Of a stretch of 64,000 nt of DNA, positions 2-63,865 are shown one piece after another. A program made the position numbers and the translations under genes. This stretch comes from an uncultured Dehalococcoidaceae bacterium (GTDB lineage Bacteria; Chloroflexota; Dehalococcoidia; UBA2979): the NCBI GenBank assembly GCA_964414675.1, contig CAYPYF010000003.1, positions 11,696 to 75,695 on the forward strand, read 5' to 3'. The notes under the pieces were generated by a model, which was given only the letters and a program-made list of their open reading frames with translations, was not told the DNA's origin and did no database searches. Position 1 is the first letter of the stretch. Each line of letters opens with the position of its first letter.

Positions 2-388
2 ACGCGGCGCGTCTGGCGCCGTCGTACCCCTGTGGATGTGTCCGACCCAAGTCGCACCGTCGTTGACATCATGGATACTCCCGCAGCAGCGGGTGGGGCA
101 CTTCATGCCGTCGAGGTCCTGCGCGCCTACTTCGAGAGCGAATACGCAGACGAGCGCATGCTGCTGGAGTACGGCGATCGCCTGGGGCGTGGAACGATGT
201 TCAAGCGGCTCGGGTATCTCGTCGAGCATGAGCAACTCGGGACCGAGGCTCTCATCGAAGCCTGTCGCGCGCGGATCAGTAAGGGCATCAGCCGGCTTGA
301 TCCCGATGGTCCGGAGGCCGGCAGGATCGTCTCGCGGTGGAACCTCCGGATAAACGTGCCGCGACTCGCGCCGGCGGACGCGGCATGA
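2..388 (+). CDS. AbiEi-family antitoxin (type IV TA), C-terminal fragment; 5' end lies outside the window
   Basis: The C-terminal region resembles the AbiEi C-terminal domain. Its stop overlaps the downstream AbiEii start by ATGA (385-388), the classic AbiEi/AbiEii coupling. Confidence 0.6.
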   Translation, partial: TRRVWRRRTPVDVSDPSRTVVDIMDTPAAAGGALHAVEVLRAYFESEYADERMLLEYGDRLGRGTMFKRLGYLVEHEQLGTEALIEACRARISKGISRLDPDGPEAGRIVSRWNLRINVPRLAPADAA

Positions 389-1770
389 TCGGGCGGGCCG
401 ATCTCGACGACCGCGTGCGGCGGTGGGGACTCCGCGACGACGTGGTCGAGAAGGACTACGTCCTCGGCTGGATGCTGTGGGGCATCGGCTCCGATCCGCT
501 CCTCGGTTCGACATGGATCTTCAAGGGGGGCACCTGCCTCAAGAAGTGCTACCTCGAGACCTATCGGTTCTCCGAGGACCTGGACTTCACGGTCCTGGAG
601 GAAGGGCCGATCCAGCCGGACGAAGTGATTGCTGCGCTCATGCCGGTGCTCGATCGCATCGGTCAGGAGTCGGGGATCGACTTCACGGTCCGTGAGTCGA
701 CGCTGCGTACCCGCCCGACCGGCCGTTCCGCAGAGGGTCGCGTGTACTACCGCGGGCCGCGTGGCGCGCCGACAGCCGCGAGCATCAAGCTCGATCTCAC
801 GAAGGACGAGCTGCTGGTTCGGCCGCCGGTGCTGCGGCCGATCAACCACGACTACCCGGAGATCCTGCCCGCGCCCGCGCAGGTACGGTGCTACGGGTTC
901 GAGGAGGTCTTCGCTGAGAAGCTCCGCGCGATGGGCGAACGCGCACGGCCGCGTGACCTCTACGACATCGTGAACCTGTTCCGTCGACCTGATTTCCGCG
1001 AGCACGCGGCTCTCGTCCGCGACATCCTCGCGCAGAAGTGCGCCGTGAAGGGGATCGACGTCCCGTCGGTCGCCGCGATCAGCGCCTCGCCGATGTTCGG
1101 TGAGTTGCAGACCGAGTGGGCGAACATGCTGGCGCACCAGTTGCAGGCGCTTCCCGACTTCGACCAGTTCTGGGCGGAGATGCCACGGCTGTTCGCATGG
1201 CTGGAGGGCGCTGAGTTCGATGAGGGAGCGGAGTTGGCGCCGCTCGGCGCCGAAGACGAAGCATGGACGCCGCCTCCCACGTTCTGGACCTCCGGTTCTG
1301 GTAACCGCCTGGAGCCGATCCGGTTTGCCGCGGCGAATCACCTCCTCGTGGAACTCGGATACGACGGCCGTACTCGCTCGATCGAGCCGTACTCGTTGCG
1401 TCAGACCCAGAACCGGAACATCGTCCTGCACGCGCTCCGCGCGGACAGCGGCGAGCACCGTTCGTATCGTGTGGATCGTATTCAGTCGGTCGTGGCGACT
1501 ACGCGCCCATTCACACCGCGGTATCTCGTGGAGTTCGCGAGCGCGGGGCCGATTGCGGTCGCCCCCGCGCCGGCCCCTGCACCCCGCGCCACCCGGACAG
1601 TGCCACGCCGCGGCACAAGGCCGGCCGGTCCAACGTACATTGTTGTGTGCTCGACCTGTCGGAAGCGCTTCAGGCGAGTTCGGCGCAACACGAGGCTGCG
1701 CCCACACAAGGATCCCAGCGGTTCGTGGAACTGCTCCGGTCGGACCGGATACATCGACCGTATCGAGTAG
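385..1770 (+). CDS. AbiEii/DUF1814 nucleotidyltransferase toxin fused to a C-terminal WYL domain and a CxxC...CxxxxC zinc ribbon
   Basis: N-terminal motifs VEKDYVLGWMLWGI and FKGGTCLKKCYL are typical of the AbiEii/AbiGii NTase family. The C-terminus IEPYSLRQTQNRNIVLHALRADSGEHRSYRVDRI matches the WYL pattern, followed by a CSTCRK...CSGRTGY ribbon. Likely start is the internal Met at 385. Confidence 0.7.
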   Translation: MIGRADLDDRVRRWGLRDDVVEKDYVLGWMLWGIGSDPLLGSTWIFKGGTCLKKCYLETYRFSEDLDFTVLEEGPIQPDEVIAALMPVLDRIGQESGIDFTVRESTLRTRPTGRSAEGRVYYRGPRGAPTAASIKLDLTKDELLVRPPVLRPINHDYPEILPAPAQVRCYGFEEVFAEKLRAMGERARPRDLYDIVNLFRRPDFREHAALVRDILAQKCAVKGIDVPSVAAISASPMFGELQTEWANMLAHQLQALPDFDQFWAEMPRLFAWLEGAEFDEGAELAPLGAEDEAWTPPPTFWTSGSGNRLEPIRFAAANHLLVELGYDGRTRSIEPYSLRQTQNRNIVLHALRADSGEHRSYRVDRIQSVVATTRPFTPRYLVEFASAGPIAVAPAPAPAPRATRTVPRRGTRPAGPTYIVVCSTCRKRFRRVRRNTRLRPHKDPSGSWNCSGRTGYIDRIE

Positions 1771-1815: not shown

Positions 1816-3981
1816 ATGCGAGCGATCATCTACTCGCGAGTCTCGACTGACGCGCAGGAGCGCGACGGGACCTCGCTCGAGACACAGGAACGCGCCTGCG
1901 AGGCGCTCATGAACGATCGCGGCTGGCGGGTCGTTCGCCGGATCCGTGACGCGGCCAGCGGCGCTTCGCTCGAACGCGACGGACTCGAAGAGCTCCGCGG
2001 CATGCTCCGGCGCGGCGAGGCCGACACGGTCGTCGCCTACGCCGTCGACCGCCTGTCCCGGAACCAGAACCACATCGGCATCCTCTTCGACGAGTTCCAG
2101 CGAGCGGAGGCGCAACTCGAATTCGTGACGGAGCGTTTCGAGGACACCGCGGTCGGGCGCTTCATCCTCGCGGCGCGTGCCTTCATTGCCGAGGTTGAGC
2201 GCGAGAAGATCCTGGAGCGCACCACGCGCGGCAAGACCGAGCGCGCCCTCAGCGGCAAGATCCCGCAGGCGTTCGGGAAAGGATGCTACGGGTACACCTA
2301 CAACCCGGAGACGGGACGGCGCGATGTTGAGCCCTACCAGGCCAGCGTCGTGCGCCGCATCTTCGAGCGGTATGCCGAGACCCGGAGCTTCTCCGCCGTC
2401 TGTAACGAACTGAACGACGCGGGTATCCCCGCGTTCTCGGGTGGCCAGTGGTACCCAATCACCGTGCGCCGCGTCCTCATGAACGAGGCCTACACCGGAC
2501 GCACCGTGTATCGGCGCACCAAGCGCGTCCCCGTCCGTGGGACCGGGGCGCGCCGACGGAGTCGGGTCATCGAACAGCCGGCAGCGGAATGGATCGACAT
2601 CCCGGGCGCGACCCCGGCGATCATCGACGACGCGCTCTGGAGTCGCATCCGAGCGATCATCGAGGATCCCGCGCGGACCGCTCGGCGATCCGTTGCTCGG
2701 CGCGACTACGCGCTGCGCGGTCGGCTGCGATGTGCGTTGTGCCTGAGCGCGATGGTAGGGCAGACGCTCAGCAACAAGGGCAGGAACTACGAGTACTACC
2801 GCTGCCGCCACGTGTATGCGCGCGTGTCAGGTCGGCAGTGTGAGGGGCGCTACGTCCCGGCAGCAATCTTGGAAGCGGGGGTGTGGTCGAAGATCCGCGA
2901 GGTGCTCACCGCACCGGGGCTGGTGCTTGCCGAGCAGCGTCGGGCCGCCCAGGTGGACGTGGACGAGGGCGCGATCCAGCGGATCGAGTCGCAGGTCGCG
3001 GTGCTCCAGAAGCGTGAGGAACGCCTGGTCCGCATGTTCGGGTTCGAGGAGGTCGAGGAGACAACCGTCCGCAATGAACTCCGCGATGTCCGCCGTCAGC
3101 GTGACGCGCTGACGGTCGACCTCGAGTCGCTCAAGAACGTCTCGGGGCATGGGATCGCCGTCGACGAGGTAGGACTTCGGGACGCATGCGCGAGCATCGC
3201 TGAGCATCTGGACGGCGCTAGTAGCAATCGGCAGGATCAGGTGCTCGAAGCGCTTCAGATTAGCGTGAGTGCGACGAGAGAGACCGCTACGGTCGAAGGA
3301 GTGCTCCCGATCGACGTCCCGGACTTTTTGATCAAAAAGTGGAGTTTATCACCACTGAACAAACATCGGCATGACGACGTGGATGAAGCGGTCGTCGCCG
3401 ACGGGGCGGAGGACGCCCGGGCTCGAGGGGGACGTCGTCTCGATGGCGACGCGGTCCGTGTCGATCACGTTGAGGACATCGGTCAGGTAGCGGCCGTTGA
3501 ACGCGATCTTCGACTCGCCGCCTTCGACGACGGCGTCGAGGATGCCCTCGTTGTCGCCGACTTCCTCCGCGCGTGCGGTGATGTGCAGGCTGCCGGGGTC
3601 GGAGCCCTCACCCGCCGAGGCGATGACGCGGACGATGCCGGAGCCGTCGCGCGCGAAGATCGAGGCGATGCGCGTCTCACGGACGAAGTCCGAGACCGTC
3701 ACTTCGGTGCGCGTTGTGTAGTTCGAGGGGATGAGCTGCTCGTAGTTCGGGAACGTCCCCTGGATCAGGTTCGCGATCAGGCGGGCGTGGCCCACGTCGA
3801 ACTGCACCTGCGTGCCGGTCGGGTTGAAGGTGATCGCCACGTCGCCGCTGCCCACCTCCTGCAGGAGGCGTCCCAGCTCGCCGAGGGCGCGCGCCGGCAC
3901 GATCGCCGTGCGGTCCACCTCGGCGGCGAGGGGCATCGTGTGGACCGAGAGACGGAAGCCGTCCGCGGCCGCCAGCCGTAG
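1816..3981 (+). CDS. Large serine recombinase (resolvase catalytic domain + recombinase domain + zinc ribbon + coiled coil). Recognisable domains end near 3340; the ORF has no stop until 3981 and runs antisense through dnaN
   Basis: N-terminus IIYSRVSTDAQ...DRLSR is the serine-recombinase catalytic motif. The zinc ribbon CALC...YYRCRH...QCEG and coiled-coil region are present. The C-terminal 200 codons are antisense to the dnaN CDS. Confidence 0.8.
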   Translation: MRAIIYSRVSTDAQERDGTSLETQERACEALMNDRGWRVVRRIRDAASGASLERDGLEELRGMLRRGEADTVVAYAVDRLSRNQNHIGILFDEFQRAEAQLEFVTERFEDTAVGRFILAARAFIAEVEREKILERTTRGKTERALSGKIPQAFGKGCYGYTYNPETGRRDVEPYQASVVRRIFERYAETRSFSAVCNELNDAGIPAFSGGQWYPITVRRVLMNEAYTGRTVYRRTKRVPVRGTGARRRSRVIEQPAAEWIDIPGATPAIIDDALWSRIRAIIEDPARTARRSVARRDYALRGRLRCALCLSAMVGQTLSNKGRNYEYYRCRHVYARVSGRQCEGRYVPAAILEAGVWSKIREVLTAPGLVLAEQRRAAQVDVDEGAIQRIESQVAVLQKREERLVRMFGFEEVEETTVRNELRDVRRQRDALTVDLESLKNVSGHGIAVDEVGLRDACASIAEHLDGASSNRQDQVLEALQISVSATRETATVEGVLPIDVPDFLIKKWSLSPLNKHRHDDVDEAVVADGAEDARARGGRRLDGDAVRVDHVEDIGQVAAVERDLRLAAFDDGVEDALVVADFLRACGDVQAAGVGALTRRGDDADDAGAVAREDRGDARLTDEVRDRHFGARCVVRGDELLVVRERPLDQVRDQAGVAHVELHLRAGRVEGDRHVAAAHLLQEASQLAEGARRHDRRAVHLGGEGHRVDRETEAVRGRQP
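3324..3339. repeat. Perfect 16-bp AT-rich palindrome CTTTTTGATCAAAAAG, 9 nt from the dnaN stop and inside the recombinase read-through
   Basis: Read directly; it is its own reverse complement. The local AT-rich stretch stands out in a 70% GC context. Confidence 0.8.
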
Positions 3982-4482
3982 CTCACCGGGCTTGAAGTGG
4001 AAGTGCACGCCCGTCAGCACCGGACGCGAGTCGTCCGTGGCGGCGGCGAAGACCGTCTGTCCGATCGCTGCACGGAGTCGCGACGCGTCGATGCGGATCT
4101 CTTCCGAGCCCGAGACCGAGGGGATCGGCGGGAAGTCGTCCGGGTCCATGCCGCCGATCGACGCCGTGTTGCGGGCGCATGAGAGGCTGACCTGCCGTGA
4201 GCGCTCCGCGAGCGTCATCGTGATCGGCTGGTGTGGGAGCGTGGCGACGAAGTCCGCGAGCAGTCGCGAGGGCATCGTGATCGCCCCTGCTTCGTCGATG
4301 TCCGCCTGGATGCGATAGGTGATCGCGATTGTCTCAGCGTCTGTCGCCGAGAGCGTGATCGAGGAATCGGCGGCCTCGACGAGGACGTGCTGAGTGATCG
4401 GGAGCGTGGAGCGCGCCGGGATGGCGCGTGACACCGCGGAAAGCCCGCGGTGCAGGTCTTCCTGTTGGCAGGACAGCCGCAT
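3349..4482 (-). CDS. dnaN: DNA polymerase III beta subunit (sliding clamp)
   Basis: Full-length three-domain beta-clamp similarity over 377 aa. It is not next to dnaA/recF/gyrB, so it may be a second clamp copy. Confidence 0.85.
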   Translation of the reverse strand: MRLSCQQEDLHRGLSAVSRAIPARSTLPITQHVLVEAADSSITLSATDAETIAITYRIQADIDEAGAITMPSRLLADFVATLPHQPITMTLAERSRQVSLSCARNTASIGGMDPDDFPPIPSVSGSEEIRIDASRLRAAIGQTVFAAATDDSRPVLTGVHFHFKPGELRLAAADGFRLSVHTMPLAAEVDRTAIVPARALGELGRLLQEVGSGDVAITFNPTGTQVQFDVGHARLIANLIQGTFPNYEQLIPSNYTTRTEVTVSDFVRETRIASIFARDGSGIVRVIASAGEGSDPGSLHITARAEEVGDNEGILDAVVEGGESKIAFNGRYLTDVLNVIDTDRVAIETTSPSSPGVLRPVGDDRFIHVVMPMFVQW

Positions 4483-21076: not shown

Positions 21077-21366
21077 GGAGCCCTCGGAGCGCGGGACCAC
21101 CGAGGGCGAGCGTGTGCGCGACCGAGGCCGCGGACGCTTGCCGTCGCCTGTCCGCGCAGGGTCGACAAGGAGTTGCACGCCGGTCAGCGGTGCTCTGGCT
21201 CCCCGGTCGCGCCAAGGCGCGTGGGCCGGGTCACAGTTGCGGGACAGCGTCGGACTCACACCGACTTCCCCGATGACCGAACGCCGAGCAGTGTAGCACC
21301 GCCGCCGGGATGCCCCGGGGGATACTTTCTGGACAAGTAGTTACCCGAGAAGTAGCATCCCGCGCC

Positions 21367-58924: not shown

Positions 58925-59352
58925 TCCGCTGGGCCGCGTTGCTGCTGTTCTACGGCTACGTGCTGCTGCTGATCGTCGCCGGCGCATGGGGTCTGCTGTT
59001 CGGCGATGTTGACCAGTGGTGGCTCCTCGGGATGGACCTCAGCCTCGTGGAGGACGAGCAGGTCCAGGCGAACGTCCTCACGCAATACCGCTTCCTGAGG
59101 GCTATCGAGCTCGGCTTCGGACTCTGCGCGTTTCGATACCGCCACGAGGTCTTCGAGGCCGTGGGCTTCTACCGGCTGTTCCTGCCGGTCATGATCTTCG
59201 GCGTCGTCGCCCGCCTGGTCTCCATCCTCGTCGATGGGTGGCCGCATCCGATCTTCCTCGCGTTCATGGGGCTCGAGGCGGCAGGCGTCGTCGCGATCTA
59301 CGCAGCGACCGCGCCCCAGCGCGAACTCCACGCCCAGGGCCAGCCCGCGTGA
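58921..59352 (+). CDS. Small integral membrane protein
   Basis: Hydrophobic profile with ATGA overlap to the previous gene. Confidence 0.5.
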   Translation: MIRWAALLLFYGYVLLLIVAGAWGLLFGDVDQWWLLGMDLSLVEDEQVQANVLTQYRFLRAIELGFGLCAFRYRHEVFEAVGFYRLFLPVMIFGVVARLVSILVDGWPHPIFLAFMGLEAAGVVAIYAATAPQRELHAQGQPA

Positions 59353-60980
59353 CTGCCCTCGGCGCGCACCGCCCGGCGCTGACGGCGCCCCCCGCCGAGG
59401 CGACACCGTCGATCGACGCGACGCCGAACCGCGCGCTCATCCTCGCGGGGGGTGGGATGCGTGTCGCCTATCAGGCGGGTGTCCTCCGCGCGGTCGAGGA
59501 GGCGGGCATCACCTTCCACCACTTCGACGGCACCTCGGGCGGCATCATCAACCTCGGGATGCTGTTCTCCGGCGTTGCGCCGGAGGAGATGTGCCGCCGC
59601 TGGCGCTCCCTGAACGTTCGGAAGTTCGTCTCCCTGCCCCCCGCACGGAGGTTCTTGCGCGCCACTCGCATGGCCGCCGTCGGCGACGCCCGCGGCATCG
59701 TCCAGCAGGTGTTCCCTCACCTCGGCATCGACCCGTCGAGGATCAATGCGGCCGCCGGCGGAACGGCCACGTTCAACGTCTGCAACTTCACCGACAAGAC
59801 CATCGAGGCCATCCCGCACGATCGGGTGACGCGTGACCTCCTCGTCGCCGGGATATCGCTCCCCGTGTTGATGCCCGCGGTGCGCGTCGGGGACGTTACG
59901 TACACCGATGCGGTGTGGATCAAGGACGCCAACCTCCTGGAGGCCGTCCGTCGTGGCGCCGAGGAGCTCTGGCTGGTCTGGTGCATCGGCAACACACCGG
60001 CGTTCCGGGACGGCGCGCTCAACCAGTACGTGCACATGATCGAGATGAGCGCGAACGGCTCGCTGTTCGACGAGTTCGCGCAGATCCAGGTCCTGAACGA
60101 AGAGATCGAGGCCGGCCGGTCACGCTACGGTCAGAGGCGCCCGGTCCGGCTCCACGTCATCAAGCCGGCCCTCCCGCTGCCGCTCGACCCGGATCTCTAC
60201 CTCGGCCACATCGACAACGCGACGCTGATCGACATGGGGTACCGGGACGCCTCGACGTACCTGCGCACCCGATCAGAAGCAGGGGTGCGATTCACCCCGG
60301 AGGCCACGAAGATGACCGAACCGCAGCTCGGGATCACGTTCCGCGAGACCATGTCCGGCCCGTTCGCCCTCGGCGAGACCGACCCGCGCGCCGGCGCCGA
60401 AGCAGGCAAGCGCGCCGGCACCAACCTCGCGATGCATGCCGCTGTCGAGATCGACTCGATACGCGCGTTCGTCGACGACCCCGAGCACCCCGGCAGCCTC
60501 GCCGGCCGCATCGACTTCACCCCCTGGGGCGAGGCCATCCCCGCTGCCAGCGGCGTCTTCAACCTGTTCGCCCCCACCGCGCAGCCAGACCTGAAGCACA
60601 TGGTGTACGAGTTGCAGTTCCAACATGCCGGTCAGGCGTACTACCTTGCCGGCCGCAAGGAGGTGAAGAGCGACAGCCACGGCCTTGACCTCTGGTCAGA
60701 CACCACCACCCTGCTGACGACGCTGCACGAGGGTGACGACGCCTCCGGCCCGGTCGTCGGTGCAGGTGTCCTCTCACTCGGCCCGGACGACCTCGCGCGC
60801 CTCATCAAGACCGTGCGCGTCACCGGAGACCCGTCCGCCCTCGACCGCGCGCGCACCATCGCCACGTTTGGCTCGTTCTTCATGGGCGAACTGTGGGATA
60901 CCTACGCCACTCCAATCCTCCAACCGGCCTCGTGGTGGAAGCGCCCGTTCCGATGGCTGCGCGGCCTGGCCCGTCAGTAG
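59349..60980 (+). CDS. Patatin-like phospholipase with roughly 290-aa C-terminal extension
   Basis: Oxyanion GGGMR, nucleophile DGTSGG, catalytic Asp in DGA. GTG start overlaps the previous stop (GTGA). Confidence 0.75.
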   Translation: MTALGAHRPALTAPPAEATPSIDATPNRALILAGGGMRVAYQAGVLRAVEEAGITFHHFDGTSGGIINLGMLFSGVAPEEMCRRWRSLNVRKFVSLPPARRFLRATRMAAVGDARGIVQQVFPHLGIDPSRINAAAGGTATFNVCNFTDKTIEAIPHDRVTRDLLVAGISLPVLMPAVRVGDVTYTDAVWIKDANLLEAVRRGAEELWLVWCIGNTPAFRDGALNQYVHMIEMSANGSLFDEFAQIQVLNEEIEAGRSRYGQRRPVRLHVIKPALPLPLDPDLYLGHIDNATLIDMGYRDASTYLRTRSEAGVRFTPEATKMTEPQLGITFRETMSGPFALGETDPRAGAEAGKRAGTNLAMHAAVEIDSIRAFVDDPEHPGSLAGRIDFTPWGEAIPAASGVFNLFAPTAQPDLKHMVYELQFQHAGQAYYLAGRKEVKSDSHGLDLWSDTTTLLTTLHEGDDASGPVVGAGVLSLGPDDLARLIKTVRVTGDPSALDRARTIATFGSFFMGELWDTYATPILQPASWWKRPFRWLRGLARQ

Positions 60981-60986
60981 CGGAGC

Positions 60987-61063
60987 TGGCGCCCTCCGGG
61001 AGGACTCGAACCTCGGACCAGCGGATGAGAAGGCCGCTGCTCTATCCCCTGAGCTACGAGGGC
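60987..61063 (-). pseudogene. Degenerate tRNA-Arg(TCT)-like copy (77 nt; extra C disrupts T/acceptor stems; pyrimidine at position 37)
   Basis: About 95% identical to the intact tRNA at 63790-63865, including 8 nt beyond the 5' end. Its cloverleaf is imperfect. Confidence 0.55.
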
Positions 61064-61259: not shown

Positions 61260-63695
61260 CTAGTCCGAAGCAACGACTCCCGTCCCGAGGGCGAGTCCGA
61301 ATGGGTTGTCCTGGATCCACGCCTCGAACTGCGCGGCCGGCATCGGTCGGGCGAAGTAGTACCCCTGCGCGACATCGCATCCGAGCTCGGTCAGCAGGTC
61401 CGCGACCTCCTGAGTCTCGACGCCCTCGGCGATCGACCTCACGCCGAGGCGGCTCGCCATCGCGATCGTGCTTTCGACGATGTCGCGAGATCGCGGGTTC
61501 GACATCAGGTCCCGCACGAACGACTGATCGATCTTGATCGTCGAGATCGGCAGGCGGTGGAGGTACACGAACGGTGAGTAGCCCGTCCCGAAGTCGTCGA
61601 TGGAGAGGTCGAGGCCAGCGCGACGGAGGTTCTCGCAGACGGAGACCGCCTCATCCATGTCGGAGAGGATCGCCGTTTCGGTGATCTCGATGTCCAGTGC
61701 CCCCTCCGGCAGTGCCCACTCCGCGACGATGTCCGTGATGCGCGCCGCGAGCTGTGTGTCCTCGAAGTCGGCTGCCGACACGTTCACGCCGATCGGCACG
61801 GGGCGCCCAGCCTCCTGCCAGGTGTGCGCCTGCTGGCTGGCCGTCTTGACGGCCCACGTCGTGAGGTGCCGGACGTAGCCGGTCTGCTCCGCCAGCCCGA
61901 TGAACTGTGCCGGCGGGACGAACGTGCCGTCCTCCCGCTGCCAGCGCATGAGCGCTTCGACCCCGACGATCCGGTTTCGCTGGAGGTCGACCTGCGGTTG
62001 GTAGTAGAACTCCAGGTCGCCATCGCTGAGGGCGCCCCGAAGCGCGGTCAGCAGTTTCAACTGGTCCGCCCGAGGTTCATCGCGGGCGGCGTCGTACATC
62101 GCCAACCCGTGATGCCCGAGCTTCGTCCGGCGGAGCGCGAGGCTGGCCCGCCTCGCGAGCGCCGCCGCAGTCGTGCCGTTCTCGGGGTAGCGCGCGAGGC
62201 TCGCACGGCTGCCCAGGTAGACCGGCTCCCCGTTCATCTGGAACGGCCGCTCGAATGCGTGTTCCAGCGTCGTCGAGACATCGAACGCGCTCCCGAACGA
62301 TGCGTCATCCTCGATCGTCGGGGTCAGCAGCGCCATGAACTCGTCGCCACCCGTGCGCCCTACCAGCGTCTCGCTGCCGAAGACCTCGACGAGTCGCGGG
62401 CCAATCTGGCGGAGGAGCTCGTCGCCGCCGTCGAACCCGAACGTGGCGTTGACCGCGCCGAACTGTCGGAGTTGGACCTCCAGGAGGAGTAGTGGAGTCT
62501 CCGGCGACTGCTGGATGCGCTCATCAATGAGGCGCTCCATCTCCATCCGGTTCGGGAGCGACGTCAGCATGTCCGTCGTCGCGTTTCGCCGCAGCGTGAC
62601 GTGTGCCTCGCCGACCGCGTCCGCCATCGACTCGAAGGCGCCGGCGAGCGACGCCATCTCGCTGCTCGAGGTCCGTGTAAGCCCGACGCGCGCTCCGAAG
62701 TCGCCACTCGAGTACCGCTGCGCCGTGCGCAGGAGTCTCTGCACCGGGTGAAGCACGCTCACCGTGCTGATCCCCCATGACCACGTGAGTCCTACCACGG
62801 TCATCACCCCGAGCACGCCGAGGGCCTGTTGGAAGGTGCGGTTGGCTCCGGCGAGGGCGCGGCTCTTGGGCGAAGTCACCACCACGTATCCCGGGATCGA
62901 ACCGGCGTGGCTGTCCAGCGGGACGACAGCGCCCAGCACCGGTTCCTCCCCCGGCGTCGCGATCTCCAGGACGGAGGGCTTCGTCGTGCGGACCGCGCTG
63001 CCCGACCACGGGAGGAGACCGGCGCCGCCGACAGGCGTCGCGGTTGCCCGTGGCACCTGGAGGAGCACGAACCCGTTTGGGCCCAGGACGGTCGTCTGGA
63101 TGTCGGCGCGGGTACTGAGTGATTCGAAGAGCATCTCGAGCCACGCGAGGTTGACCGAAAGCTGGACCACCCCCACGGGCACCCCGTCACCGTCCAGGAG
63201 CGGCATGGCGAAGAGGGACACCGGCCGGTTCGAGATACGCCCGAACAGGTACCCACTCGATGCGAGGTCGCGCGTCCGGAGTGTCTCCTGGAAGTATGGG
63301 CGGTCGCCGACGAACGCCCCCATCCCGTCGGGGTTCGCCGAGCAGACCACCACCCCGTTCCGCCCGACGACCGCAGTGTTTGAGTACGCGGAATGCGCCG
63401 ACGTCACCCGACGGAGCACCTCGTTACAGGAGTCAGCGCCGAACACGCGCAGCGCCGGGTCGATCGACAGTTCCCGCAGGAGGTCTGCGACGACATCGAT
63501 CAGCTGGTTATGGGTGGTGGCCACGAGGCGCGCCTGCGCCAGGAGGTCGCCTTCCACCTGAGTGATCGCGCTCTCCCGTTCGCTGTTGCTCTTCCAGAGC
63601 AACAGCGCCCCCATCGCAACGATCAGGACGAGGATCATCGTCATCAGTCGCCATCGGATGCCGAACAAGAAGACAGGCACGGAGAACTCCGTCAT
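61260..63695 (-). CDS. Membrane sensor diguanylate cyclase/phosphodiesterase (periplasmic Cache-like domain, HAMP, GGDEF, EAL)
   Basis: GGDEF motif RTGGDEF and EAL motifs (EALMRW, ...DDFGTGYS...). Confidence 0.85.
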   Translation of the reverse strand: MTEFSVPVFLFGIRWRLMTMILVLIVAMGALLLWKSNSERESAITQVEGDLLAQARLVATTHNQLIDVVADLLRELSIDPALRVFGADSCNEVLRRVTSAHSAYSNTAVVGRNGVVVCSANPDGMGAFVGDRPYFQETLRTRDLASSGYLFGRISNRPVSLFAMPLLDGDGVPVGVVQLSVNLAWLEMLFESLSTRADIQTTVLGPNGFVLLQVPRATATPVGGAGLLPWSGSAVRTTKPSVLEIATPGEEPVLGAVVPLDSHAGSIPGYVVVTSPKSRALAGANRTFQQALGVLGVMTVVGLTWSWGISTVSVLHPVQRLLRTAQRYSSGDFGARVGLTRTSSSEMASLAGAFESMADAVGEAHVTLRRNATTDMLTSLPNRMEMERLIDERIQQSPETPLLLLEVQLRQFGAVNATFGFDGGDELLRQIGPRLVEVFGSETLVGRTGGDEFMALLTPTIEDDASFGSAFDVSTTLEHAFERPFQMNGEPVYLGSRASLARYPENGTTAAALARRASLALRRTKLGHHGLAMYDAARDEPRADQLKLLTALRGALSDGDLEFYYQPQVDLQRNRIVGVEALMRWQREDGTFVPPAQFIGLAEQTGYVRHLTTWAVKTASQQAHTWQEAGRPVPIGVNVSAADFEDTQLAARITDIVAEWALPEGALDIEITETAILSDMDEAVSVCENLRRAGLDLSIDDFGTGYSPFVYLHRLPISTIKIDQSFVRDLMSNPRSRDIVESTIAMASRLGVRSIAEGVETQEVADLLTELGCDVAQGYYFARPMPAAQFEAWIQDNPFGLALGTGVVASD

Positions 63696-63789: not shown

Positions 63790-63865
63790 TGGCGCCCTCG
63801 GGAGGACTCGAACCTCCGACAAGCGGATTAGAAGGCCGCTGCTCTATCCCCTGAGCTACGAGGGC
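63790..63865 (-). tRNA. tRNA-Arg (anticodon TCT)
   Basis: Perfect cloverleaf folded by hand: acceptor GCCCTCG/CGAGGGC, D-arm GCTC/GAGC, anticodon loop CTTCTAA, T-arm GGAGG-TTCGAGT-CCTCC, discriminator G. The 3' CCA is encoded in the genome. Confidence 0.85.

Follow-up and report, generated by a model that had tools for sequence, protein, structure and literature searches.

We analysed a 64,000-nucleotide stretch of DNA (the window) from an uncultured Dehalococcoidaceae bacterium of the Chloroflexota (contig CAYPYF010000003.1 of GenBank assembly GCA_964414675.1, positions 11,696 to 75,695). At its start the window carries a pair of overlapping AbiE genes: the end of an AbiEi antitoxin gene and a complete gene for an AbiEii toxin, in which a WYL domain, a basic linker and a predicted zinc-binding tail come after the nucleotidyltransferase (NTase) domain. 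Throughout, nucleotide positions refer to the window and residue numbers to the 461-residue toxin. The features of the pair, with the evidence for each in brackets, are as follows (pLDDT, predicted local distance difference test score).

2–388, + strand: 3' portion of the abiEi antitoxin gene, truncated at the left edge of the window (PADLOC PDLC02271, E 6e-36; weak Pfam match to the AbiEi_1 C-terminal domain)
385–1770, + strand: abiEii-WYL-Zn toxin gene (open reading frame, PADLOC PDLC02317, homologues)
385–1209, + strand: AbiEii/DUF1814 nucleotidyltransferase domain, residues 1–275 (Pfam PF08843, Foldseek, invariant columns)
1210–1308, + strand: acidic connector, residues 276–308, with invariant W294, P296 and P297 (alignment of homologues; pLDDT 68–69; net charge -6)
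1309–1542, + strand: WYL domain, residues 309–386, two short helices and then a five-stranded beta-barrel (Pfam PF13280, Foldseek)
1543–1623, + strand: disordered Pro/Ala/Arg-rich basic linker, residues 387–413 (pLDDT <50; net charge +5; isoelectric point 12)
1624–1767, + strand: predicted basic CCHC zinc module, residues 414–461 (conservation, model; net charge +9)

The antitoxin–toxin pair and its nucleotidyltransferase

The open reading frame (ORF) of the toxin runs unbroken from the ATG at 385 to the stop codon at 1768–1770, giving 461 codons plus the stop. Its start codon (385–387) shares four nucleotides with the TGA of the upstream ORF (386–388) in an ATGA junction. A GTG at 337, which would give a protein of 477 residues, was rejected as the start; ATG 385 is preferred because nearly all homologues begin at the corresponding 'MI(G/T/S)R' and because the ATGA overlap results. 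Thirty-five PADLOC AbiEii models match the toxin, and the best of them, PDLC02317 (396 positions), covers residues 1–392 in one stretch with 443 bits. An AlphaFold2 model, built with 59 homologues as input, has a mean pLDDT of 82.9 and a predicted template-modelling score (pTM) of 0.73. An exact-sequence look-up found no record of the toxin protein of the window, and NCBIfam holds no family for the toxin and none for AbiEi. We consider the identity of the toxin's parts close to certain.

For the N-terminal part, Pfam family PF08843 (AbiEii) matches residues 36–264 with 139.8 bits against a cut-off of 22.5 (E 1.8e-40). In Foldseek searches of the PDB, the closest solved structures are MenT4 (Rv2826c; 6y56, E 3.8e-7) and MenT3 (Rv1045/TglT) with its variants (E 4e-6 to 2e-5) of Mycobacterium tuberculosis. 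Target template-modelling (TM) scores are 0.58–0.65 for the MenT3 matches; taken together, the MenT3 and MenT4 matches span E values of 4e-7 to 2e-5 at a target TM of about 0.6–0.65, and their GG and S-x-D-x-D motifs align with those of the toxin. Unlike the window toxin, MenT proteins are single-domain proteins of about 290 residues, and identity to them is only 14–24%. All four conserved NTase motifs, as defined in PMC11375011 (GG[ST]; [ST]xDxD; a catalytic Lys; DxxD), are present as KGGT (47–50), S63-E-D65-L-D67, EK179LRA (K179) and RPRD191LYD194 (D191/D194), and all are invariant in the alignment of 59 homologues.

The phospho-acceptor of MenT1, T39, precedes the catalytic D41 by two residues (PMC11375011), its equivalents are S78 of MenT3 and T65 of Streptococcus agalactiae AbiEii, and antitoxin-induced auto-phosphorylation at the MenT3 S78/AbiEii T65 position kills activity. 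The S63-E64-D65 segment of the window toxin is invariant among homologues and has the spacing of MenT1 T39/D41; by analogy, control of the toxin through phosphorylation of S63, a Type VII mechanism, is plausible. As to the target, MenT toxins and S. agalactiae AbiEii put pyrimidine nucleotides onto tRNAs, with a suggested preference for class II tRNAs and with preferences that differ between AbiEii and MenT toxins (preprint 10.64898/2026.01.19.700257).

The pair resembles the AbiEi–AbiEii systems of S. agalactiae and Lactococcus lactis in being bicistronic with overlapping genes, in its DUF1814 toxin with four NTase motifs and a Ser/Thr at the phospho-acceptor position, and in its COG5340-type AbiEi with an AbiEi C-terminal domain. 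AbiE was first placed in Type IV of the toxin–antitoxin systems and is now argued to be Type VII. The window pair differs from these systems in a toxin about 170 residues longer, the excess consisting of the WYL domain, the basic linker and the CCHC module, and in an AbiEi of about 290–300 residues. Of the latter, 128 residues, encoded at 2–385, are readable inside the window; the complete AbiEi of a syntenic locus (L001) has 299 residues, and its N-terminal helix-turn-helix (HTH) matches lie below the Pfam threshold. A sequence-only reading of this DNA, which preceded our analysis, had called the toxin an AbiEii-type NTase, longer than the canonical form and coupled by an ATGA to an AbiEi upstream, and on each of these points it was right.

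Inside the otherwise variable, acidic and lower-confidence connector between the NTase and WYL domains, a W-x-P-P motif (W294, P296, P297; 1264–1275) is invariant. It may serve in docking or as a hinge.

The WYL domain, the basic linker and the zinc tail

The Pfam WYL family, PF13280, matches residues 309–369 with 23.5 bits, a marginal pass over the cut-off of 21.8 (E 5.7e-5); scores among relatives range from 22 to 34 bits, and precomputed PF13280 matches exist on many homologues. In the AlphaFold2 model the strands of the domain span residues 320–326, 329–341, 346–352, 358–362 and 366–375, with pLDDT values of 85–94. Foldseek superposes the barrel on the single-stranded DNA (ssDNA)-binding WYL domain of DriD (7tzv_A) over 77 columns, with a root-mean-square deviation of 1.7 Å and 28% identity, and further matches it to the WYL domains of PafBC, of CapW bound to ssDNA, and of BrxR. 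When the 56-residue WYL core was used as a sequence query against the PDB, it retrieved DriD chains only, at E about 0.09. The WYL domain proposed in the sequence-only reading is thereby confirmed, and the segment quoted there is the core of the domain.

Residues that contact ssDNA in DriD were mapped onto the toxin through a HMMER alignment, with numbering taken from the DriD NYL at 191–193.

DriD R176: toxin R329, variable in the family
DriD R178: toxin R331, invariant
DriD Y192: toxin V347, without an aromatic
DriD K202: toxin E357, variable
DriD R204: toxin R359, invariant
DriD W206: toxin Y361, invariant
DriD R207: toxin R362, kept in at least 90% of homologues

An I-V-L of the toxin aligns to the NYL, so that Tyr192 of DriD faces no aromatic residue. 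As judged from this alignment, the core Arg/aromatic platform of the WYL ligand site is retained and the eponymous tripeptide is not. The toxin has the beta-barrel fold in common with the WYL domains of DriD, PafBC and CapW, and it keeps the DriD contact positions R178, R204, W206 and R207. For these three regulators ssDNA is the demonstrated ligand that activates or derepresses through the WYL domain. The fold of WYL domains, which is Sm-like, binds single strands irrespective of base, and DriD accepts single-stranded RNA (ssRNA) as well, though more weakly. Unlike these regulators, the toxin has no winged helix-turn-helix (wHTH), WCX or dimerization domain, its tripeptide is degenerate, and its WYL domain sits on an enzyme. 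It stands outside the wHTH-WYL-WCX architecture: a Pfam scan gave no HTH or WCX match, the NTase comes before the WYL domain and a disordered linker after it. Since HTH and WCX domains are lacking, only the WYL domain is shared with regulators of the BrxR/CapW/PafBC/DriD type.

Structure matches in BFVD showed that many phages encode tiny stand-alone WYL proteins, of about 55–120 residues, that superpose on the barrel of the toxin. If host WYL domains sense ssDNA, these small phage proteins could be decoys.

Beyond the WYL domain, the linker (residues 387–413) differs between homologues in both length and sequence. The tail that follows it is conserved. Its motif, C422-x2-C425-x15-H441-x8-C450, is a CCHC with three cysteines in all, and it supplies the putative zinc ligands, each of which is invariant in 30 tails.

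1648–1650, + strand: C422
1657–1659, + strand: C425
1705–1707, + strand: H441
1732–1734, + strand: C450

Across these 30 diverse tails F429, R431 and G455 are invariant as well. Residues 414–461 are modelled as all-beta, with pLDDT above 90 in the full model and 90.1 when the tail is modelled alone. The Pfam scan of the toxin gave no zinc-ribbon family above threshold for the tail, and Foldseek with the tail found nothing significant, the top matches (E 0.6 at best) being to zinc motifs in MCM, in aRF1 and in ribosomal proteins. Because neither search gave a significant match, we use 'zinc ribbon' to describe a shape and not to assign a family: the tail is a predicted CCHC zinc module, ribbon-like in shape, that belongs to no curated family. 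Of the CxxC...CxxxxC zinc ribbon proposed in the sequence-only reading, the zinc-binding tail therefore survives, with its four invariant ligands, and the motif does not, the pattern being CCHC with no CxxxxC.

The tail profile weakly resembles classical C2H2 fingers through a 'Y-x-C-x2-C-G-K-x-F-x-R...H' knuckle (a single Gfi-1 finger, 23 bits). A classical C2H2 finger was rejected for the tail, which has one conserved His, an F-to-H spacing three residues longer and no predicted helix. Neither the basic linker nor the CCHC tail is described in the literature that we searched. A profile search with the tail alone across 5.8 billion proteins returned five short ORFs and no new host architecture; as a word-index search, it gives weak evidence of absence. 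Two of the five were examined in context, and each is a split or remnant tail. In one (L087, 2742–4144 of that locus) a 423-residue AbiEii gene is followed by an overlapping, separate 47-residue ORF that consists of the zinc module alone, so the gene is split or frameshifted. In the other (L085, 2153–4285) the order is an AbiEi_4-type gene, two small genes with TIR domains and a 94-residue ORF made up of the last WYL strand, the basic linker and the CCHC tail; a TIR cassette seems to have taken the place of the NTase-WYL part of an AbiEii-WYL-Zn toxin.

Distribution, evolution and genomic setting

A word-indexed search returned 7229 homologues. The best 120 of these are all 386–478 residues long and fall into two length classes, one of about 446–478 residues with a zinc tail and one of about 386–428 residues that ends past the WYL domain or in a short basic stub. 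A 461-residue protein with 95% identity to the toxin is known from an independent sample. In a scan that took a single genome for each GTDB species, 319 relatives were confirmed, short AbiEii proteins of 265–296 residues among them. The survey of AbiEii-homologue architectures that the sequence-only reading had proposed was carried out on 80 loci with a toxin ORF (76 from the genome scan and the look-up loci L001–L004), nearly all from different species.

NTase + WYL + Zn: 30 of 80 loci
NTase + WYL: 27 of 80 loci
NTase only (ORFs of 244–296 residues, some truncated or frameshifted): 23 of 80 loci

Loci with the full architecture were found in Chloroflexota, Planctomycetota, Verrucomicrobiota, Nitrospirota and Acidobacteriota, in several classes of proteobacteria and in further groups; in the Actinomycetota loci the toxin has the WYL domain without the tail. 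Full-length copies lie on plasmids of cultured Rhizobium strains and of 'Candidatus Thiodictyon syntrophicum', where RefSeq labels them 'nucleotidyl transferase AbiEii/AbiGii toxin family protein'. The architecture is also found on three IMG/VR contigs, and a tblastn search of a phage genome collection gave no match to the toxin. The C-terminal 177 residues, searched against 1.84 billion cluster representatives (50% identity), gave 727 matches at E <= 1e-3. Among the best 150 of these, 13 are full-length AbiEii-WYL proteins and 92 are fragments whose alignment begins with the first residues that they have; the other 45 have unaligned N-terminal residues and are mostly unresolved. One odd match (P0154) has a Phage_int_SAM N-terminus.

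An AbiEi-like ORF ends directly at the toxin start in 76 of the 77 related loci with sufficient upstream sequence, and in 49 related loci the overlap is exactly four nucleotides. This upstream AbiEi is kept whether or not the toxin has the WYL domain or the zinc module, so the extension supplements control by AbiEi and does not replace it.

A neighbour-joining tree calculated from just the NTase domain, which has no bootstrap support and is indicative only, groups the WYL-bearing toxins in one large clade; short AbiEii, mainly of Bacteroidota type, form a separate clade. Nested within the WYL clade are three sequences that lack WYL, among them L059, which looks frameshifted since tblastn still matches residues 1–461. 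The presence of WYL-less members inside the clade suggests that the core enzyme can function in the absence of the appendage, as expected of a regulatory add-on. The zinc tail is scattered over the clade: the sister pairs L005/L004, L020/L053 and L018/L041 differ in having it, and a detached zinc module was found within 500 nucleotides downstream of none of the 27 WYL-only loci. We conclude from the differing sister pairs and the absence of detached modules that the tail has been lost or gained repeatedly, the WYL domain being stable.

Downstream of the toxin gene, the window continues with two convergent genes.

1816–3430, + strand: large serine recombinase, 3' end uncertain (Pfam Resolvase, Recombinase, Zn_ribbon_recom)
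3349–4482, - strand: dnaN, on which the recombinase converges and which it abuts

The syntenic locus L001, whose toxin is 85% identical, shows the element in full: a TraD/FtsK-like, coupling-protein-like ATPase, Replic_Relax, a 64-residue ORF, AbiEi, the toxin and the recombinase follow one another. After the recombinase come, as in the window, dnaN and the genes of a HAD hydrolase, a MerR regulator and a DinB-type polymerase. On this gene order, the AbiE pair is cargo carried by a small mobilisable integrative element whose insertion lies just beyond dnaN, a setting that fits an addiction or a defence role alike. Elsewhere the pair occurs in an ordinary chromosomal context (L003), and at L004 it lies near a gene with a weak SMODS-domain match.

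The recombinase ORF that opens at 1816 meets no stop before 3981 (721 residues) and so runs about 630 nucleotides antisense through dnaN, and its homologue in L001 ends at 537 residues, at a TGA that is missing from the window. Either the stop has been lost or the true C-terminus lies earlier; a high G+C content permits long spurious antisense frames. Inside the 3' end of the recombinase gene, directly 3' of the dnaN stop codon (3349–3351, - strand), lies a perfect 14-bp palindrome, TTTTTGATCAAAAA, at 3326–3339, which is nearly conserved in L001 (aligned columns 326–339). It is a candidate for the dnaN terminator or for the core of the site at which the element attaches.

Towards the far end of the window, two tRNA-Arg(TCT)-like sequences (60991–61063 and 63790–63865, both - strand) lie 2.7 kb apart and differ by two mismatches over about 70 nucleotides. 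The copy at 60991–61063 is degenerate, with an Rfam score of 32 bits and an altered anticodon loop and 3' end. Between the two lies a single gene for an 811-residue dCache-HAMP-GGDEF-EAL protein (61263–63695, - strand), and the arrangement looks like a tRNA-end duplication from an integration event. A 654-residue ORF with a patatin-like phospholipase domain (59016–60980, + strand) adjoins the degenerate copy. The window further contains a cobalamin riboswitch at 21169–21296 (- strand; Rfam RF00174, 46 bits).

A possible gate on the toxin or handle for its substrate

We propose that the locus is a two-gene AbiE toxin–antitoxin or abortive-infection module in which the NTase is held under AbiEi and the C-terminal extension binds single-stranded nucleic acid and, in our preferred reading, gates the toxin; to this explanation as a whole we assign a probability of roughly 0.5. 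By analogy with MenT1/3 and S. agalactiae AbiEii, the N-terminal MenT/AbiEii-type NTase would add pyrimidine nucleotides to tRNA 3' ends and so stop translation. The co-translated AbiEi would keep the toxin off, probably via antitoxin-induced auto-phosphorylation of S63. The WYL barrel, the flexible basic linker and the basic CCHC module would form an appendage that binds single-stranded nucleic acid, and ssDNA or ssRNA from phage replication, DNA damage or conjugative entry would be coupled to toxin activity, as a built-in sensor or gate atop AbiEi. In the gate variant, the bound strand would switch the toxin on or would shield it from phosphorylation. The data show the domain identities, their conservation and the structure of the operon; the tRNA target, the phosphorylation of S63, the binding of nucleic acid and the gating are all steps that we infer, and they differ in how far we trust them. 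Binding of single-stranded nucleic acid by the C-terminal module is probable. That the module is a gate rather than a substrate handle is a tentative view, held at somewhat under even odds. The most specific version, in which ssDNA or ssRNA of an invader binds the toxin directly and either turns on tRNA nucleotidylation or protects the toxin from AbiEi-induced phosphorylation, strikes us as rather unlikely.

A gate is favoured by the precedent of the WYL regulators and by the apparent dispensability of the appendage for the core enzyme. The weak SMODS-domain match near L004 and the full-length copies on plasmids and IMG/VR contigs count towards the proposal as a whole, against which several observations weigh. 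The WYL sensors that serve as precedents, DriD, PafBC and CapW, are all transcription factors, and the tripeptide of the toxin is degenerate, I-V-L standing opposite the NYL of DriD. WYL domains on or assisting enzymes (the PIF1 helicase; WYL1, the accessory protein of Cas13d) bind a substrate-type strand and not a signal. The zinc tail has been repeatedly lost and is thus dispensable. S. agalactiae AbiE, placed in Escherichia coli, gave no protection against 32 phages, so that even the defence role of AbiE is context-dependent, and a literature search found no experimental work on any WYL-bearing AbiEii. The sequence-only reading had taken the fusion of a WYL domain to an Abi toxin to imply ligand-gated control. 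By itself the fusion implies no such thing: an auxiliary role in substrate binding fits the data equally well.

In that role, the WYL domain, linker and zinc module would together bind the RNA or DNA being modified, for example the single-stranded 3' end or the variable arm of particular tRNAs, and set specificity or processivity, while AbiEi alone controls the toxin. We regard this as possible, though well short of an even bet. An Sm-like fold that binds single strands without base specificity, and ssRNA too in DriD, would suit such a handle, as would a very basic, flexibly attached linker and tail, features that RNA-binding extensions typically show. The WYL domains of PIF1 and WYL1, with their substrate-type strands, point the same way. 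Specificity modules are made plausible by the differing tRNA preferences of AbiEii and MenT, and with AbiEi kept in 76 of 77 loci a second layer of control is unnecessary. On the other hand, tRNA is modified by short AbiEii and MenT enzymes that have no domain of this kind (preprint 10.64898/2026.01.19.700257), the WYL-less members nested in the WYL clade suggest that the appendage is not required for catalysis, and the best-characterized WYL ligand is ssDNA rather than structured RNA. An improbable alternative would give the C-terminal module no effect on catalysis and have it serve protein–protein or DNA functions, for example oligomerization, docking to AbiEi or assistance with binding the operator and autoregulating the abiE genes. 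The WYL domain of WYL regulators does adjoin a dimerization domain, the invariant W294-x-P-P connector resembles a docking element and AbiEi-type antitoxins autoregulate their own operon; yet the invariant WYL residues correspond to the Arg and aromatic positions through which DriD contacts nucleic acid, wHTH and WCX domains are missing from the toxin, and AbiEi already appears to carry the DNA-binding wHTH.

The chance that the toxin is an artefact, a frameshift or assembly error joining an AbiEii gene to a separate WYL/zinc-finger gene, is negligible. Splits do occur, as the separate 47-residue zinc-module ORF behind a 423-residue AbiEii gene at L087 illustrates, but the ORF in the window is continuous and a 95%-identical protein of the same 461 residues comes from an independent sample. 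The WYL domain lies in the same ORF in 57 of 80 loci, 30 of them with the zinc tail as well; PDLC02317 matches residues 1–392 in one stretch, and plasmids of cultured Rhizobium and Thiodictyon encode the full length. We rejected the artefact on this conservation of architecture across loci. The sequence-only reading had itself allowed that the C-terminus might not be WYL or that a frameshift might have fused two genes; instead, the WYL profile passes its cut-off and the architecture recurs in hundreds of homologues from many phyla.

The novelty implied in that reading was overstated. The fusion of WYL to DUF1814 (an 'AbiGII-like nucleotidyltransferase') was listed by Makarova, Anantharaman, Grishin, Koonin and Aravind in 2014 (Front Genet 5:102; PMC4012209), who proposed for it ligand sensing that regulates the AbiG/AbiE system. 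PDLC02317 matches through the WYL domain, and RefSeq routinely annotates such proteins as AbiEii/AbiGii. The locus is a further member of a widespread, catalogued and uncharacterized subfamily, and as a single locus it is ordinary. The 2014 treatment consists of one sentence, with no analysis of the WYL-DUF1814 family and no mention of the basic linker and CCHC tail, and the PDLC02317 match stops ahead of the zinc tail, at residue 392; the term 'WYL' is absent from the recent MenT paper (PMC11375011) and from the AbiEii preprint. Added here are a residue-level case for an intact WYL ligand site, the definition of the CCHC tail and basic linker, and the finding that the tail has been repeatedly lost while the WYL domain was kept.

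AbiE has been described as among the most abundant anti-phage systems (PMC11375011), and the AbiE and MenT papers considered here name no infection signal that releases the toxin. The WYL-bearing subfamily is large and spans many phyla, and it has on the toxin itself a domain that senses ssDNA in all characterized regulators; it is therefore a natural place to test direct sensing of infection. If the proposal held, the CCHC tail with its C2H2-like knuckle would be a new bacterial nucleic-acid-binding zinc module. If gating in particular proved true, it would be the first case, to our knowledge, of a WYL domain that allosterically controls an enzyme and not a transcription factor, and it would give a concrete answer to what triggers AbiE.

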